Shown here: positions 41,572 to 48,882 of the stretch, one piece after another
How positions within the stretch are numbered: position 1 is the stretch's first letter
Layout of the letters: each line of letters begins with the position of its first letter
Source: Acholeplasma sp.
GTDB taxonomy: Bacteria > Bacillota_I > Bacilli_A > Acholeplasmatales > UBA5453
Reading direction: 5' to 3'
NCBI GenBank assembly: GCA_036677365.1
Contig: JAVBWN010000030.1
Coordinates: forward strand, 89,422 to 153,421
DNA: 64,000 nt
Notes under the pieces: model-generated
Told to the model about the DNA's origin: nothing
The model's database searches: none
What the model saw: the letters and a program-made list of their open reading frames with translations, nothing else
Program-made: the position numbers and the translations under genes

Positions 41572-42465
41572 ATGGATTTCGAACTCTTTAAACAGAAAAT
41601 TTATGATCAAGGTCGAGATTTAGAAGTGGCGATATTCAATACACTTTTTGAAAACGATGACAGATCAATGGTCGCGTATGCATTATCAATATATCAAAAT
41701 AAAGATGGTGGTTTTGGTCATGGTTTAGAACCAGACTCAACAAATCCTAACTCATCCCCATTTCAAACATCGGTTGCACTTGAGATATTGGTTGATGTTG
41801 GATTTCGTGATAACAATCTTGATGAATACACCAAAGACCTTGTGAACCGTGCCTTTAAATATTTAGTAAAAACCATGAATGATGATTTGTGGCCAGCCAC
41901 CATACCATCAAACAATGATTTTCCATGTGCTGTTTGGTGGATGCATGATCCTAACAAAACGCAAACCATCAACCCAACTGGAAGCATTTTAGCATCCACC
42001 ATATTGCTTGCTAATAAAAATACATCGGGATACAAATCAGCACTCGCGATGGCTACAAAGCATATTCAAGCATATTTGAATACCCCTTGTCATGAAAAAC
42101 ATGAGCTTGCTGTACTTGCAAGACTATACCATGCTTTAAAAGAAGAAGAACCTCAATTTGAATTATTGTCACAGTTCAAAGAAAAACTATTCAAAGAGAT
42201 TCAAACATCCATTGACCCGGTGGATGCCTGGGAAGGCTATGCCACATTCCCTTTTGACTTTCCTCTTGACGATGAAAACTATGGCATAGATTCTAAAGTG
42301 ATTCAAGCGTCATTGGCGTATTTAAAGAAAACCTTAAGAACAAATTATTGGGAACCGTCATGGCAATGGTATAAGGACGAAGACACTTTTGAAATTCAAT
42401 CGATTAAATGGCATGGTATATTGATTAATAAATTCTTATCGTACATCTCACATATTCAAAAATAG
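41572..42465 (+). CDS. Hypothetical protein with prenyltransferase/squalene-cyclase-like repeat
   Basis: YQNKDGGFGHGLEPD; AGGAGG RBS. Confidence 0.6.
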   Translation: MDFELFKQKIYDQGRDLEVAIFNTLFENDDRSMVAYALSIYQNKDGGFGHGLEPDSTNPNSSPFQTSVALEILVDVGFRDNNLDEYTKDLVNRAFKYLVKTMNDDLWPATIPSNNDFPCAVWWMHDPNKTQTINPTGSILASTILLANKNTSGYKSALAMATKHIQAYLNTPCHEKHELAVLARLYHALKEEEPQFELLSQFKEKLFKEIQTSIDPVDAWEGYATFPFDFPLDDENYGIDSKVIQASLAYLKKTLRTNYWEPSWQWYKDEDTFEIQSIKWHGILINKFLSYISHIQK

Positions 42466-42466
42466 A

Positions 42467-42495
42467 TTGTAATTGAATGATTTCTGTGATAATAT
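42467..42495 (+). promoter_or_regulatory. Candidate promoter of the aro/tyr operon leader
   Basis: TTGTAA (42467-72), 17-bp spacer, TAATAT (42490-95) with TG extension. Confidence 0.5.
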
Positions 42496-42521
42496 ATTTT
42501 CAAAAAGAAGGCTTGATTTTA

Positions 42522-42569
42522 ATGCAAAAGACTCAAATTAGATTTTCCTATTACTATTATTATATTTAA
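42522..42569 (+). CDS. Tyr-rich leader peptide MQKTQIRFSYYYYYI (putative attenuator peptide)
   Basis: ATG CAA AAG ACT CAA ATT AGA TTT TCC TAT TAC TAT TAT TAT ATT TAA; GAAGG RBS 10 nt upstream; precedes the tyrosine biosynthesis operon. Confidence 0.85.
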   Translation: MQKTQIRFSYYYYYI

Positions 42570-42636
42570 GGGAATGCAAACACATTCCTTTTTATTGGTG
42601 AACATAATAGGAAATGTGCTAATTGATGAACTTCTT

Positions 42637-42664
42637 ATCCTTAGGACATTCCTAAGGATTTTTT
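42637..42664 (+). terminator. Attenuator (conditional intrinsic terminator) upstream of DAHP synthase
   Basis: ATCCTTAGGA-CAT-TCCTAAGGAT followed by TTTTT, 22 nt before the start codon. Confidence 0.85.
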
Positions 42665-42686
42665 CATTTTTAAGGAGAGAAAAACC

Positions 42687-43709
42687 ATGATTGTACAAAT
42701 GAAACCCCAAGCAACAAAAGAACAATTTAAACGCATTTCTGATTTTTTAGTGTCCAAAGGTTTTGGTATCAAAGATGCATCCTCTGAAACCAACATCGTA
42801 TTCGGTATCATTGGCGATACCAAAAGTTTAAACCCAACAGATTTAGAAGCATTTGAAGGTGTATTCCAAGTCACTCGTGTATCTACACCTTACAAACTGG
42901 CAAGTCGATCATTTAAGAGAGAAGACACCATCATCAAAGTTGGCAAAGACATTCTCATTGGTGGGGATCAGTTTGTTGTGATGGCAGGTCCATGTTCGAT
43001 TGAATCATTCGAAAATACGGATGAGATTGCAAAAGCAGTTAAAGCATCAGGTGCGAGAATTTTACGTGGTGGTGCATTCAAACCAAGAACCAGTCCGTAT
43101 GCCTTTCAAGGTATGGGCTTAGAGGGTTTAAAGATCATGCGTGAGGTTGCAGATAAGTACGATTTAGCCATCGTGTCTGAAATCATGAGTGAAGATATGA
43201 TTGAAGCATTTGAACCTTATGTGGATATTTATCAATTAGGGGCACGCAATATGCAAAACTTCCACTTGCTAAAACAATTGGGTGCGAGAACGAAAAAACC
43301 TATTCTATTGAAACGTGGATTATCAGCAACCATCGAAGAGTGGTTGATGAGTGCTGAATACATTATGGCATCCGGAAATGAAAATGTAATCCTTTGTGAA
43401 CGTGGCATTCGTACGTTTGAAAAATATACCAGAAATACATTAGACATCAGCGCAGTATTGGCGATTAAAGAATTATCACACTTACCAGTCATCATTGACC
43501 CTTCTCATGCTGCTGGTAAGTATTCAATGATTGAAAAACTATCCATGGCAAGTTATGCTGTGGGAGCGGATGGACTCATTGTTGAAGTACACCCTGACCC
43601 AGAACATGCGATGAGTGATGGTGCACAATCACTAAAACTCGAAAAGTTTGATCACATGATGCAAGAGTTGAACAAACTTTCGGATGTCCTTGAAAAGAAA
43701 ATCAAATGA
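42687..43709 (+). CDS. aroF: DAHP synthase, type I-beta with N-terminal regulatory (ACT-like) domain
   Basis: AGPCS, GGAFKPRTSPY, KRG, CERGIR, DPSH. Confidence 0.95.
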   Translation: MIVQMKPQATKEQFKRISDFLVSKGFGIKDASSETNIVFGIIGDTKSLNPTDLEAFEGVFQVTRVSTPYKLASRSFKREDTIIKVGKDILIGGDQFVVMAGPCSIESFENTDEIAKAVKASGARILRGGAFKPRTSPYAFQGMGLEGLKIMREVADKYDLAIVSEIMSEDMIEAFEPYVDIYQLGARNMQNFHLLKQLGARTKKPILLKRGLSATIEEWLMSAEYIMASGNENVILCERGIRTFEKYTRNTLDISAVLAIKELSHLPVIIDPSHAAGKYSMIEKLSMASYAVGADGLIVEVHPDPEHAMSDGAQSLKLEKFDHMMQELNKLSDVLEKKIK

Positions 43710-44524
43710 GAGTCTTTATAGCGGGATTGGGCCTTATTGGGGGAAGTTACGCTGAAGGGTTAACTCAAAAAGGCTATGAAGTATACGGTTATAACCGTAC
43801 GAAAGAATCTGAAAAAATTGCCATTGAAAGAGGCTATATTAAAGACGCAGGACTAAAATATCTACCACTCTGTGAAGTGGTTGTTTTAGGTTTCTATCCT
43901 CAGCTGAATGTAACATTTTTGAATGATATCAAAAATGATTTAAGACCAGGACAAATCATCACGGATGTTGCAGGAACCAAAGTGGAGATGATACCTCAAA
44001 TCGAAGCATTACTACCTGCGTATGTGCATTATGTATCACACCATCCGATGGCAGGTAGAGAAACGAAAGGTATCGAACGAGCGGATTGCAACATGTTTAA
44101 AGGTGCGAACTTTTTGATCACGCCTTCAAAACACGCCACACCAGAAGCGATTGAAATCATCAAGCAAATGGGTAGAGACTTAGAGTTCAGAAAAATAACA
44201 GTCATCGATCCAAAGCGACATGACCAGTTGATTGGATTTACTTCACAATTACCGCATGCTATGGCAGTTGCTTTAGTTAACAGTGACACCTACGAGGAAA
44301 CCTCTAGCTTTACTGGGGATTCATTTAGAGACTTAACAAGAATCGCGATGATCAATGAAGTCTTATGGACTGAACTTTTTTTTGAAAATAAAACCATTTT
44401 GATTGAAGAGATAGAAAAATTTGAAAGCGAACTAGACAAGATAAAACAAGCATTGAATGAGAATGATAAGGATGCTTTAGCAAAAATGTTCATTCAGTCG
44501 ACAAAGAAAAGGAGTGGTTTCTAA
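43706..44524 (+). CDS. tyrA: Prephenate dehydrogenase
   Basis: GLGLIGGS, DVAGTK, HPMAGRE, HD..S.LPH, FRDLTRIA. Confidence 0.93.
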   Translation: MRVFIAGLGLIGGSYAEGLTQKGYEVYGYNRTKESEKIAIERGYIKDAGLKYLPLCEVVVLGFYPQLNVTFLNDIKNDLRPGQIITDVAGTKVEMIPQIEALLPAYVHYVSHHPMAGRETKGIERADCNMFKGANFLITPSKHATPEAIEIIKQMGRDLEFRKITVIDPKRHDQLIGFTSQLPHAMAVALVNSDTYEETSSFTGDSFRDLTRIAMINEVLWTELFFENKTILIEEIEKFESELDKIKQALNENDKDALAKMFIQSTKKRSGF

Positions 44525-45567
44525 TGAGAATACAAATGCCGCTAGCTAATCATGCATATGATATATTATTAGACCACAAAGCGATTTTACAGTTACCAGA
44601 TGAAATTAGAAACTTTCATAAAGGCGATAAAATTTACATCATTACAGATCGGAATGTAGACCGTCTTCATCATCATTTAATCCAAGGTATTTTAAAGGAT
44701 TTTTCATTAAATTTTGTGGTGGTTGAACCTGGTGAATCCTCTAAATCTTTTCAAGTCTATGAATCCGTGATTGATCAACTAATTCAACACGGGATGAAAC
44801 GAACAGATTTGTTGATTGCTTTTGGTGGGGGAGTCATCGGTGATTTAGGTGGATTCGTAGCATCCACTTTATATCGAGGTGTCCCTTATATTCAAATACC
44901 AACCACACTGCTTGCACAAGTTGATTCATCTGTAGGCGGGAAAACGGCTATAAATAGCAGTAAAGGTAAAAATATGGTGGGTACATTTTATCAACCAAAA
45001 CTTGTCATCATTGACCCTGATTTTCTAAAAACATTACCTGATTTCGAATATAAAAACGGTATGGCTGAAGTGATTAAATCGGCATATATTGGCGATGTAG
45101 TATTACAAGATAAATTACTCAAAGGTCAAATAAGGACGCTTGAGATGATTGAACGATCCATTCTAGTTAAGAAAAACGTAGTACTCGTCGATGAATTCGA
45201 TTTGAATGAACGTATGTATTTGAATTTCGGACATACATTTGGACATGCACTCGAAAAACAGAGCAACTATGAGATTGCACACGGTTATGCTGTGGCTGAA
45301 GGCATGCTCATGGCTATTCATATTGGTGAACGCTTAGGTATTACACCTAAAACGATATTTAAAAGTTTAAAACTATTATTAGAAAAGTATGATTTAGGGT
45401 TATTGAATACAAATCCTGTGCCACTCATTGACGATATTTTCTATGACAAGAAAAACACCCATGGGCAATTGAAGATGGTATTCTTAAGTGATATTGGGAA
45501 ACCAATGATTCAACCAATTACTAAGGAGGTACTGTATGAATGTTATCATTCACAAACCTCTAAGTGA
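44524..45567 (+). CDS. aroB: 3-dehydroquinate synthase
   Basis: GGGVIGD, PTTLLAQVDSSVGGKT, LNFGHTFGHA. Confidence 0.97.
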   Translation: MRIQMPLANHAYDILLDHKAILQLPDEIRNFHKGDKIYIITDRNVDRLHHHLIQGILKDFSLNFVVVEPGESSKSFQVYESVIDQLIQHGMKRTDLLIAFGGGVIGDLGGFVASTLYRGVPYIQIPTTLLAQVDSSVGGKTAINSSKGKNMVGTFYQPKLVIIDPDFLKTLPDFEYKNGMAEVIKSAYIGDVVLQDKLLKGQIRTLEMIERSILVKKNVVLVDEFDLNERMYLNFGHTFGHALEKQSNYEIAHGYAVAEGMLMAIHIGERLGITPKTIFKSLKLLLEKYDLGLLNTNPVPLIDDIFYDKKNTHGQLKMVFLSDIGKPMIQPITKEVLYECYHSQTSK

Positions 45568-46798
45568 GGGCAATATTGAAGTTGTACCAAGCAAATCAAT
45601 CACACACCGTGCACTGATCGCTGCCGCATTAGCACATGGAAGAAGTCTCATTAAAAGACCATTAGAGTCTGAGGATACAGAAGCAACCATCGATATGTTA
45701 AGAGCACTTGGTGTTACGATTACAAAGACCACTGAAGGCATCATTGTTGAGTCCAATGGTATTCAAAAACCATCAAGAATTTTGTTCGCAAATGAATCTG
45801 GATCTAGTTTAAGATTCTTAGTACCAGTTGCACTTACGGTAGACACTGAAGTGACCTTTGATGGCAAACCAGGCTTACGAAAAAGACCCATTTCAGAGTA
45901 CTTAAGGGTATTTGACCAAATGGGCATCAAATATCGCCAATTTGATGAAAATTTACCCCTTGAAATTAAGGGTCAATTGGTCCCTGGTGAATATAGAATT
46001 TCAGGTAGTATTTCTAGTCAATTTGTGACTGGTCTATTGTATGCTTTACCACTACTTAAAAGTGACTCAAAACTGATTTTAGAGACACCCCTAGAATCAA
46101 AGGATTATGTCGATATGACGATATCAATTCAACGTCAGTTCGGTGTTGAAATTGAACCAATTCAAGAGGGATATTTTATCAAGGGAAATCAAAAGTATTG
46201 TGAAAAAACGTTTGAAGTATCAGGTGACTTTTCACAGGCTGCGTTCCACATTGTTGCAGGAATTTTAGGTGCAAAATTGAGCCTATCCAAAATTGAGCAA
46301 AACACCCATCAAGCGGACGAAAAAATTCTTGAAATCGTAAAAATGATGGGCGGAGGTATAAAATTCGATAATGGCACAATAGAGCCAAAATCAAGTCAAA
46401 CACATGGTAGAGTAATAGACTTATCACAGTGCCCTGATATAGGACCGATAATGGCTGTACTATGCGCTTTATCGGAAGGTGAGTCACGTATTATTAATGC
46501 ATCTCGACTCAGAATCAAGGAATCTGACCGAATTACAGCCATCACAACTGAGCTAAATAAACTTGGTGCTAAGATTAGTGAGACTAAGGATGGCATGATT
46601 ATTCAAGGTGTTAAAAACTTCAAATCAAATATGAACTTATATTCATGGAATGACCACCGGATAGTCATGGCTTTAGCAATCGCAGCCATCAAAACAGATG
46701 GTCCAATTCGAATTGTTGGTGCAGAAGCTATTAATAAATCCTATCCCACTTTCTTTGAAGATTATGTTAAACTGAAAGGAGAAATATCTTATGAATAA
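45536..46798 (+). CDS. aroA: EPSP synthase
   Basis: SKSITHR, ESGSSLRF, SSQF, LRIKESDR, NDHRI, KSYP. Confidence 0.97.
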   Translation: MNVIIHKPLSEGNIEVVPSKSITHRALIAAALAHGRSLIKRPLESEDTEATIDMLRALGVTITKTTEGIIVESNGIQKPSRILFANESGSSLRFLVPVALTVDTEVTFDGKPGLRKRPISEYLRVFDQMGIKYRQFDENLPLEIKGQLVPGEYRISGSISSQFVTGLLYALPLLKSDSKLILETPLESKDYVDMTISIQRQFGVEIEPIQEGYFIKGNQKYCEKTFEVSGDFSQAAFHIVAGILGAKLSLSKIEQNTHQADEKILEIVKMMGGGIKFDNGTIEPKSSQTHGRVIDLSQCPDIGPIMAVLCALSEGESRIINASRLRIKESDRITAITTELNKLGAKISETKDGMIIQGVKNFKSNMNLYSWNDHRIVMALAIAAIKTDGPIRIVGAEAINKSYPTFFEDYVKLKGEISYE

Positions 46799-47060
46799 AT
46801 TAGAAGAGGCTCGTTTACGTATTGATCAGATAGACCAACAAATGGCTGATCTATTCAAAGCGCGTATGATTGCTGTTATTGATGTACTAGACTACAAAAA
46901 GCAAAATCATCTTCCCGTATTAGATGCAACAAGAGAGATGAAGATGATCGATAAAAATGTAGCTAGATTTAATACACCAGAATTAGAAGCCTATTACAAA
47001 CAATTTCTAAAATCGATTCTTGAGATATCTAGAACTTATCAGGAGGATCATTATGAATAG
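46791..47060 (+). CDS. Chorismate mutase (AroQ/CM_2 type)
   Basis: LEEARLRIDQID, YKK...PVLDATRE; location in the aro operon. Confidence 0.9.
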   Translation: MNKLEEARLRIDQIDQQMADLFKARMIAVIDVLDYKKQNHLPVLDATREMKMIDKNVARFNTPELEAYYKQFLKSILEISRTYQEDHYE

Positions 47061-47844
47061 ATTTGGACTCATCGGTAGAAATATCAGTTATTCATTGTCT
47101 AAAAGAATCCATGAGGGCATCGCTCGTATGAATGGGTATCGTTTGGTTTATGACATTTTTGACTGTGATACAGAATTGGATGTTGTTGCGAGACTAAATT
47201 TATTAAGACAAGGTTCACTCAAAGGCTTGAATGTGACCATCCCATACAAAGAATCGGTGATGCGTTATTGTGACCGCTTAACAGAAACAGCCAAAGAGAT
47301 TGGTGCAGTCAATACATTGTATATGGTAGATAATGAATTGGTAGGCGATAACACCGATTATTATGGTTTCATTAAACTATTGAATTTATACCATGTGAAT
47401 CCTAAAGGTAAAGTATCTTATATTTTAGGTTCAGGTGGTGCCGCTAAAGCAGTGCACTACGCGTTGAAATCTTTAGGTGCGAAAGCTGTCGTGGTCTCAC
47501 GCGATAAGGAAAAGATTAAAGAGCAATTTCAATTGGTTGCTGGTTATGAAGTTTTAGATATTGTTCCTAAGATTGATATCATGGTAAATACAACACCCAT
47601 CGGTACTTCACCTAGAGGTGACCAAATGCCAGTATCCAAAGCCATTGCACAAAAAACAGTGGTGGCTATTGATTTAATCTATAACCCTAAAGAAACCATG
47701 TTTATGAAAACAGCAAGTTTTGGTATTGGTGGTGCTATGATGCTTGTCGGTCAAGCGATGAAATCTCAGGCTATTTGGCTTGATCGTGCTATTGATGAAT
47801 CTAAAGAAGCTTTTGATGCACTTGTAGAGGAGATGCATTCATGA
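47053..47844 (+). CDS. aroE: Shikimate dehydrogenase
   Basis: SLS..IH, NVTIPYK, GAVNT, NTDYYG, GSGGAAKA; start at ATG 47053 after AGGAGG. Confidence 0.94.
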   Translation: MNRFGLIGRNISYSLSKRIHEGIARMNGYRLVYDIFDCDTELDVVARLNLLRQGSLKGLNVTIPYKESVMRYCDRLTETAKEIGAVNTLYMVDNELVGDNTDYYGFIKLLNLYHVNPKGKVSYILGSGGAAKAVHYALKSLGAKAVVVSRDKEKIKEQFQLVAGYEVLDIVPKIDIMVNTTPIGTSPRGDQMPVSKAIAQKTVVAIDLIYNPKETMFMKTASFGIGGAMMLVGQAMKSQAIWLDRAIDESKEAFDALVEEMHS

Positions 47845-48827
47845 ACCATTTTGGTACTTTATTCTCAGTTAATATTTACGGAGAATCCCATGGTAAAGCC
47901 GTTGGCATCGTCATTGATGGTATGACACCAGGTGTCTTTGTGGATGAAAAACTATTGTTATCTGATTTAAATCGTAGGAAAGCTGGTGCCGTTGGGACAA
48001 CCAAAAGAATCGAAGCAGATGAACCGAAAATTATCTCAGGTGTCTATCGTGGATACACCACAGGTGCACCTATTCATGTGATGTTTGAAAATACCAATAC
48101 AAGAAGTGAAGACTATAATAACCTACTAAAACAACCTCGACCTGGGCATGCCGATTTCACCAGTTTTGTGAAATATAAGGGTTTTGCCGATCAACGCGGG
48201 GGCGGTCATTTTTCAGGTAGGCTTACCACAGGTATAGTTGCCGCGGGTTCATTTGCTAAGATGTTACTTAACGTAGCTTTTGAATCGAAACTCGTACGTG
48301 TCGGTGATCTTACAGACATGCATGGCTTAGATGAATATTTACAAGGTATCTCTGAAAGTTTTGATTCGGTAGGCGGCATTGTCGAAGTAAGAGTCCGTAA
48401 CCTTGAAGTTGGTATTGGTGAACCGTTCTTTGATTCGGTTGAGAGTAAAATCGCCCATATGGTATTTTCAGTTCCAGCGATTAAGGGTATCGAATTTGGT
48501 ATTGGTTTTAAAGGCATTGAATTGAGAGGGTCGCAATTCAATGATCCAATCGTAGATGCTAAAGGAAGAACTGAAACCAACCACAATGGGGGATTGAATG
48601 GTGGTATCACCAATGGCAATGAATTGGTAGTACGTGTATTCGTTAAACCAGCATCGAGCATATTCTTAAAACAAGATACATTTGACTTTGAAACGAATTC
48701 TGTACAATCTTTACAAATCGAAGGTAGACATGACGCATGTATCGCTAGACGTGCGGTGGTTGTCATTGAAAATGCGATTGCGATTGCTCTCGCCGATTTG
48801 TATCTTCAAAAAAAATCAAGGGAGTAA
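47841..48827 (+). CDS. aroC: Chorismate synthase
   Basis: GESHG, RPGHAD, GGHFSGRLT, GRHD. Confidence 0.97.
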   Translation: MNHFGTLFSVNIYGESHGKAVGIVIDGMTPGVFVDEKLLLSDLNRRKAGAVGTTKRIEADEPKIISGVYRGYTTGAPIHVMFENTNTRSEDYNNLLKQPRPGHADFTSFVKYKGFADQRGGGHFSGRLTTGIVAAGSFAKMLLNVAFESKLVRVGDLTDMHGLDEYLQGISESFDSVGGIVEVRVRNLEVGIGEPFFDSVESKIAHMVFSVPAIKGIEFGIGFKGIELRGSQFNDPIVDAKGRTETNHNGGLNGGITNGNELVVRVFVKPASSIFLKQDTFDFETNSVQSLQIEGRHDACIARRAVVVIENAIAIALADLYLQKKSRE

Positions 48828-48837
48828 TCCCTTTTTT
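48818..48837 (+). terminator. aro operon terminator
   Basis: AAGGGA-GTAA-TCCCTT followed by T-run. Confidence 0.65.
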
Positions 48838-48882
48838 GTTATAATGAAAGTGGTATGAATTATTATATTCCTAAGAATATAG

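Follow-up and report, generated by a model that had tools for sequence, protein, structure and literature searches.

The leader upstream of aroF in this Acholeplasma genome is, with a probability that we put at roughly 85%, a real and conserved transcription attenuator of the classical ribosome-mediated kind, with charged Tyr-tRNA as its signal and the aroF-tyrA-aroB-aroA-chorismate mutase-aroE-aroC operon under its control. This reading draws on sequence comparison and on folding models. The leader lies in a stretch of DNA of 64 kb, which we refer to as the window, and for it we computed the anatomy, the conservation, the selection on the coding frame, the covariation of the helices, the direction of the folding switch and the link to tyrA. 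The nearest named records to the window are Acholeplasma sp. and Acholeplasmatales, and the lineage is thus Acholeplasmatales. The elements of the leader and the operon are the following.

42467..42472, + strand: -35 box TTGTAA of a predicted sigma-70-type promoter, read from sequence
42485..42495, + strand: predicted extended -10 element, TGTG and then TAATAT at 42490-42495, 17 nt after the -35 box, from sequence and conservation
42506..42511, + strand: Shine-Dalgarno-like AGAAGG of the leader ORF, 10 nt before its ATG, with an SD-like purine stretch also in relatives
42522..42569, + strand: leader ORF of 15 codons, MQKTQIRFSYYYYYI*, with a Phe codon at position 8 (42543-42545) and Tyr codons at positions 10-14 (TAT TAC TAT TAT TAT, 42549-42563), conserved and with a codon-position pattern
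42544..42553, + strand: segment S1, which from folds and a cognate-pairing test pairs with 42605-42614 in the untranslated RNA (protector helix around A:B)
42568..42576, + strand: segment A, overlapping and directly following the stop codon, 5' arm of hairpin A:B
42582..42591, + strand: segment B, with the invariant TCCTTT, partner of A, or of C once A is covered (anti-antiterminator)
42605..42629, + strand: segment C, the switching strand, with S1, B or 42635-42654 (antiterminator, -14.4 kcal/mol) as partners
42637..42664, + strand: intrinsic terminator, with a 10-bp stem at 42637-42659, a 3-nt loop, -12.5 kcal/mol, and a U run that ends at 42664
42687..43709, + strand: aroF, DAHP synthase type I-beta with an N-terminal ferredoxin-like domain (PF00793, PF18152 and NF006421 over cut-off)
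43706..44524, + strand: tyrA, prephenate dehydrogenase (PF02153, PF20463; NCBIfam prephenate dehydrogenase matches below their equivalog cut-offs)
44524..48827, + strand: aroB, aroA, chorismate mutase, aroE and aroC, the remainder of the overlapping gene run

A preliminary description of this DNA had placed an RBS-preceded mini-ORF with five consecutive Tyr codons and a 10-bp terminator with a U-tract in this leader, and had noted that 42544-42553 is the exact reverse complement of 42605-42614 and that 42608-42617 can pair, with one bulge, to 42646-42654. All four observations were reproduced, coordinates included. The U run ends 22 nt before the aroF start codon at 42687. The 226-nt leader region folds at z = -3.3, and none of 200 shuffles was equally stable; two terminator-like sites were found, against 0.1 expected. 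The genome has 11,454 ATG ORFs of 8-30 codons that follow an SD sequence, and the leader ORF alone among them bears YYYY. Transcription of the leader would begin near A42502, as judged from the position of the promoter boxes. A consensus promoter scan called no promoter at the leader, since the site agrees with the consensus at 8 of 12 positions and the cut-off was 9. Immediately upstream, a gene for a 297-aa protein without Pfam or NCBIfam match (41572-42465) ends with its stop codon 1 nt before the -35 box, and since no terminator separates this gene from the -35 box, upstream transcription could also reach the leader. At the other end, a small hairpin and U run at 48817-48840 overlap the aroC stop codon and possibly terminate the operon, with recG downstream. 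A second ORF in the leader, of 38 codons from the ATG at 42574 to 42690 and overlapping the aroF start codon, was rejected, as neither its start nor its frame is conserved in relatives.

These elements suggest the following switch. When tyrosine is plentiful, a ribosome would arrive at the leader ORF's stop codon and cover both S1 and A, B would then pair with C, and the terminator would form and end transcription near 42664. When Tyr-tRNA is scarce, the ribosome would wait at codons 10-13 and cover S1 only, so that A:B stays closed and C is left free; C would then pair with the 5' arm and loop of the terminator as they emerge, and RNA polymerase would read on. When the leader is not translated at all, S1:C would enclose A:B and the terminator would form. 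We infer that the ORF is translated, that transcription starts at the site given above, that transcripts do terminate here, that ribosome and polymerase are timed to one another and that the operon responds to tyrosine. A search of public sequencing runs with the locus of a relative (L019) gave 24 entries, all of them contigs and with one recorded RNA holder; four runs compared with the locus proved flat and DNA-like and carry no signal for transcript starts, ends or level.

We looked for the leader in related genomes; 51 of 61 relatives and 99 of 121 genomes of a second family yielded AroF. The 115 Acholeplasmatales loci compared comprise most of the full-length AroF matches and no more than a sample of those that are short and distant. 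A promoter, a Tyr-rich mini-ORF, hairpins and a terminator precede aroF in 77 of these 115 loci, spread over 13 genera and three families: nine of nine loci in the genus of the window, 66 in one other family (f3) and two in another (f4). Thus, the conserved Tyr-run mini-ORF with covarying stems before aroF and tyrA, for which the preliminary description had proposed to look, is present. Among the loci examined, the leader is absent from the other three genera of the window's own family, in which a promoter stands directly before aroF, and from a further family (f2). An Acholeplasma oculi record (L132) carries a leader of the same family, MIHLNSYYYFYHM. The leader family was not found before aroF in 63 loci from outside the Acholeplasmatales, three of which had aromatic-rich short ORFs, and a scan of the window's genome revealed no other leader-peptide attenuator; two matches to WW-bearing mini-ORFs on contig C22 were set aside because they lie inside the end of a coding gene.

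Leader ORFs were chosen by position, by the presence of a Shine-Dalgarno sequence and by GG after the stop codon, and the most Tyr-rich candidate was taken, with at least two Tyr codons required. Most loci offered a single candidate, and the segment B motif, used independently, flagged 77 loci, of which 75 have the Tyr ORF. We analyzed 74 distinct leaders, two identical leaders having been collapsed and one with a GTG start (L080) counted within the 77 and left outside the 74. Not counted as leaders were L044, a T-box locus with two Tyr codons by chance, and L037, which has none. The promoter pattern TTK..-TG-n-TAnnnT precedes the ORF in all 74 leaders, as compared with 2.2% of shuffles, and the ATG is nearly invariant among them. 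Variant and different leaders were also seen. The GTG-start leader (L080, G090:C24) is of the same family and has a weakened Tyr run (SYSYYG). In family f2, one locus (L033, G041:C3) has a 30-codon ORF ending in IYYGYCRFN about 250 nt upstream of aroF, before aroF-tyrA, together with several hairpins and a terminator-like stem and no Rfam match, and it is possibly an independent Tyr attenuator. In a Victivallaceae record (L197), from another phylum, a short ORF rich in aromatic residues (MSSYNSIRFSFFYGFAYFFRR...) lies some 200 nt before aroF and is a possible Phe/Tyr leader.

The leader ORFs carry the marks of selection on a peptide-coding frame. Tyr accounts for 321 of the 1003 leader residues in the 74 leaders (32%), as compared with 4.7% in long ORFs, a share slightly biased because the most Tyr-rich ORF was taken and at least two Tyr codons were required. 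From the first to the last Tyr, the peptides hold 316 Tyr and 12 Phe residues, and Trp occurs once among all leader residues. The Tyr codons are TAT and TAC in a ratio of 227:94, and variation in the Tyr run falls mainly on the third base of the codons: over three codons counted from the first Tyr onward, the within-genus differences for codon positions 1, 2 and 3 are 0.06, 0.09 and 0.29, respectively. The position of the run is held as well, with the first Tyr codon 23-28 nt before A in 62 of 74 leaders and the stop codon 2-9 nt before the GG of A in all 74. Outside the Tyr block, neither the sequence nor the length of the peptide is conserved.

All 74 leaders can be parsed into S1, formed by the codons at the start of the Tyr run, followed by A, B, C and the terminator. 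To compare the helices we used an alignment-free test in which the duplex energy of a segment with its own partner is set against its energies with partners from other genera, with p values from permutation at the level of genera; these p values overstate the support, as the genera are still related and kin are not independent. For segment C and the terminator, the cognate duplex is the more stable one in 66 of 74 leaders, and this advantage is seen in 13 of 13 genera (p = 1e-5). The same holds for S1:C in 53 of 74 (p = 1e-5), although this pairing was unsupported in genera g30 and g31, for B:C in 53 of 74 (p = 3e-5), a helix that is weak alone at -5.2 kcal/mol, and for A:B in 45 of 74 (p = 0.005), in which 87.9% of cells are paired. 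Control pairings were not significant (S1 with the terminator, p = 0.30; S1 with B, p = 0.93). In the terminator itself, eight of nine consensus pairs have changed on both sides and 97.3% of cells are paired. An antiterminator that excludes the terminator therefore has comparative support, as in classical attenuators. RNAalifold on a MAFFT alignment recovered the terminator as the only helix, an outcome to be expected with competing helices and a gapped alignment. GGAATG at 42571-42576 had been suggested to pair with either copy of CATTCC, at 42583-42588 or at 42647-42652; it is complementary to both, and the pairing with the copy in the terminator finds weak comparative support (29 of 74 leaders, p = 0.026).

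We next folded the leader with a ribosome footprint placed on it, which gave three states: S1:C around A:B together with the terminator in untranslated RNA, A:B together with the antiterminator with the A site at an early Tyr codon, and B:C together with the terminator at the stop codon. With RNA free to 42656, the terminator probability in the window is 0.94 without translation, 0.00 with the A site at codons 7-13 and 0.84 at the stop codon. Whether the switch is clean or not depends on the chosen cut point of the RNA. When the whole terminator is available, it is still preferred in equilibrium at the Tyr stall (0.84-0.92 for the leader of the window, with a median of 0.86 over the family), and when the RNA ends 5 nt short, free to 42654, the antiterminator prevails at the stop codon as well, with a value of 0.92 in the window and in 45 of 74 leaders across the family. 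With the full terminator and a footprint of A-site+11, the antiterminator is higher at the Tyr stall than at the stop codon in 52 of 74 leaders and lower in one; it exceeds 0.5 at the Tyr stall in only 23 of 74. The direction of the switch expected from constrained folding was thus obtained, but the complete terminator remains the preferred structure at equilibrium during a Tyr stall, and control must therefore be kinetic. B:C would have to form before the terminator arm emerges, which is plausible since B and C are transcribed before that arm. Hairpin A:B with its run of 3-5 U might make the polymerase pause; pausing at segment B through a NusG TTNTTT motif was considered and dropped, the motif being present in 1 of 74 leaders.

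Conservation, selection at the level of codons, covariation and constrained folding thus support the central idea of the preliminary description, that a ribosome stalled at Tyr codons frees a segment which invades the terminator. The fold model adds a step that was not part of it: a ribosome at the stop codon would melt A:B, B would capture C, and the terminator would be restored.

The leader also follows the gene content of the operon. In 75 of the 77 leader loci tyrA lies directly after aroF, and the other two loci end too early; none of the 10 loci with aroB directly after aroF carries the leader. Two of the 15 genomes of genus g19 lack the leader, and these two (99% and 97% complete) also gave no tyrA match by protein or by family. 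Sixteen loci have aroF-tyrA without this leader. In one g19 genome (L029, G040:C14; 99% complete), aroB lies directly after aroF, tyrA and pheA were not found, and the place of the Tyr leader is taken by another, short one that has a hairpin and a structure resembling a terminator, a natural loss of both gene and sensor. The operon in the window has tyrA and no prephenate dehydratase gene, as the preliminary description had stated in matching the sensed amino acid to the product; the genome itself encodes pheA, on another contig, with its own promoter and no leader. The genes for AroK and a type II dehydroquinase are likewise outside the operon. A T-box-controlled trpB (G000:C20:24074-24318) stands in this genome, in which no chorismate-binding (TrpE-type) protein was detected, and may serve indole salvage.

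Since pheA is present and no chorismate-binding protein of the TrpE type was found in the window's genome, the pathway there feeds both Tyr and Phe, which would suit a rival reading in which the same attenuator senses Tyr and Phe jointly, with Phe codons in the stalling window (codon 8 here) providing the Phe input. We regard this extension as possible and hold it tentatively. In the fold model, a stall at Phe codon 8 likewise leads to antitermination. In addition, counting from three codons before the first Tyr to the last Tyr as the stalling window, Phe codons occur there in 24 of 47 pheA-positive genomes as compared with 1 of 20 pheA-negative genomes (Fisher p = 0.00025); the leader is kept in 27 of 74 genomes in which pheA was not found, and the pheA-negative set consists of the 20 that are at least 90% complete, with seven less complete ones omitted. 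The association is not significant once descent is considered, as an AroF tree, three rows of which are under half filled, yields only seven independent pairs, with 3.4 for the association, 0.5 against it and a median sign-test p of 0.375. Moreover, 23 of the 47 pheA-positive genomes have no Phe in the stalling window, and the TTT at codon 8 is also needed for S1:C, a pairing that two loci of the same genus (L007 and L008) keep with Ile. The related proposal, that the Tyr attenuator is tuned to gene content, being kept only with tyrA and gaining extra Phe codons as a second input where pheA is present, is to our minds similarly tentative.

A second rival accepts the translated ORF and the hairpins and replaces the trigger: instead of tRNA charging, a Tyr-rich nascent peptide would stall on a free metabolite, or a protein would bind the conserved segment GCATTCCTTTT. 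Nascent-peptide stalling in response to a free metabolite is the behavior of TnaC-like leaders. Segment B, with its six invariant columns and a T run that is 3-5 long and never longer, is conserved beyond what pairing needs, which would suit such a trigger. The requirement that B pair with both A and C would nonetheless account for its conservation, the peptide outside the Tyr block is unconserved, and the spacing of the Tyr codons and of the stop codon to A fits the footprint model. We consider this reading improbable.

Improbable to a still greater degree is a Phe-sensing uORF as proposed for a published motif, uORFC-13-1, in which the pace of the ribosome would be set by a U run that encodes one or more Phe residues. 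This is the published reading (PMC8632094), Phe is codon 2 in 23 of the 74 leaders, and in the window the invariant TCCTTT lies within the frame that begins with the ATG at 42574. However, no more than 23 of 74 leaders have TCCTTT in a frame that starts with ATG, and these are spread across three frames; Phe is wholly absent from 24 of 74 leader peptides, and 48 of 74 lack it in the stalling window. The leader is also kept in genomes in which pheA was not found, and it is absent where tyrA is absent. Finally, a constitutive terminator or a chance frame in AT-rich DNA with no regulatory role, which the AT-richness of TAT repeats and the dominance of the terminator at equilibrium might suggest, is largely refuted by the uniqueness of the ORF in the genome, its conservation over 13 genera with variation at third positions, the covarying antiterminator and the tie to tyrA.

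The tyrosine attenuator proposed here very probably belongs to the uORFC-13-1 family, an identity that we judged from the description of that motif. According to its description, uORFC-13-1 is a candidate motif of 24 sequences found only upstream of aroF in Acholeplasma and environmental relatives (Brewer et al. 2021, RNA Biol 18:2417, PMC8632094). It is given there with -35 and -10 boxes, an RBS, a start codon, a U run interpreted as encoding one or more Phe, a further paired region and a terminator close downstream, and attenuation is proposed (PMC8632094). Our leader shares its place upstream of aroF in Acholeplasma (the A. oculi record included) and relatives, its promoter boxes, RBS and start codon, with the promoter pattern in every leader analyzed, and an adjoining intrinsic terminator with another paired substructure. 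As for the U run and Phe, the window has Phe codon 8 and the invariant U run in B, the frame of which is not conserved. The published description differs in that it gives a Phe signal and, as presented there, includes no Tyr codons and no antiterminator (PMC8632094). Our analysis adds 74 distinct leaders from 13 genera, a conserved Tyr run, four covarying helices and the link to tyrA. The preliminary description had known of no such attenuator in Mollicutes; the element itself had very probably been described already, as a Phe sensor, and the claim is thus right in part, as our literature search found neither the Tyr reading nor the switch in print. What our analysis adds is the probable Tyr ligand, the four-helix relay with covariation and the link to tyrA gene content, while the class of mechanism is a textbook one.

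Like trpL, pheL and hisL of E. coli and Salmonella, the leader has an RBS and a short ORF with tandem codons for the product, an intrinsic terminator before the first gene, mutually exclusive protector, antiterminator and terminator helices, and a predicted termination by default without translation. A multi-hairpin relay is the layout of the his attenuator, and the two alternatives found here, A:B with segment C bound to the terminator arm versus B:C with the terminator, resemble it. Unlike the classical leaders, to which it is similar neither in sequence nor by Rfam, it would sense Tyr, and its untranslated protector is one long nested hairpin, with S1:C around A:B. The general mechanism of leader-peptide attenuation is treated in PMC9413887, and His leader peptides have been predicted in the Bacillus cereus group, Peptostreptococcaceae and Erysipelotrichales (PMC9413887, PMC2965389). 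As with those predicted Firmicutes His leaders, comparative genomics here places an attenuator where a T-box is usual, although for another amino acid, operon and lineage. The T-box riboswitch (RF00230) likewise senses tRNA charging and controls a terminator; the attenuator would sense through the ribosome and not by direct tRNA binding.

No T-box match was found at the aroF leader locus, and in the 64-kb window Rfam gave no match above gathering scores and no leader family among 10 weak, chance-level matches. Elsewhere, the window's genome has 13 T-box matches, including those before tyrS, pheS, trpS and trpB. In the sister family f2, three aroF-pheA copies (L042, L043 and L044) lie behind T-box-like leaders, of which L043 and L044 are over the Rfam gathering score, and the specifier of these leaders, read by eye, is Phe. 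Inspection by eye also showed T-box-like leaders ahead of aroF in records of Catenibacterium and Coprobacillaceae (L146 and L199), and tandem T-box elements precede an amino-acid ABC transporter-like operon at G000:C20:19528-19873.

In our literature search, neither later work on uORFC-13-1 nor a description of a Tyr leader peptide came up; older comparative surveys may list Tyr leaders. The work of Vitreschak (2004) is said to be a comparative survey, and tyrosine is, to our knowledge, missing from the textbook list of leader-peptide attenuators. In a table of a paper on Shewanella, aroF is labelled 'attenuator sensing tyr-tRNA', with reference to an E. coli hypothesis from 1980 (PMC2659441). 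A promoter-mapping paper on A. laidlawii has no attenuation in its main text and no aroF in two of its supplements (PMC5138195); start-site tables keyed by locus tag may yet bear on the start predicted here. According to a paper of 2016, reliable data on attenuation are lacking for tenericutes (PMC4833913). As to the timing of the two machineries, B. subtilis polymerase is reported to outrun ribosomes, while Mycoplasma pneumoniae has an expressome (PMC9226507).

With the present analysis, the catalogue entry uORFC-13-1 becomes a precise, mutable model with a different ligand. If true, the model would place a Tyr-tRNA-sensing attenuator in a wall-less lineage derived from Firmicutes, for which our literature search found no description, and would correct the published Phe reading. 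It would also imply working ribosome-polymerase timing in Mollicutes, and a working attenuator in a culturable Acholeplasma would be a natural reporter, for this lineage, of the timing of transcription and translation.
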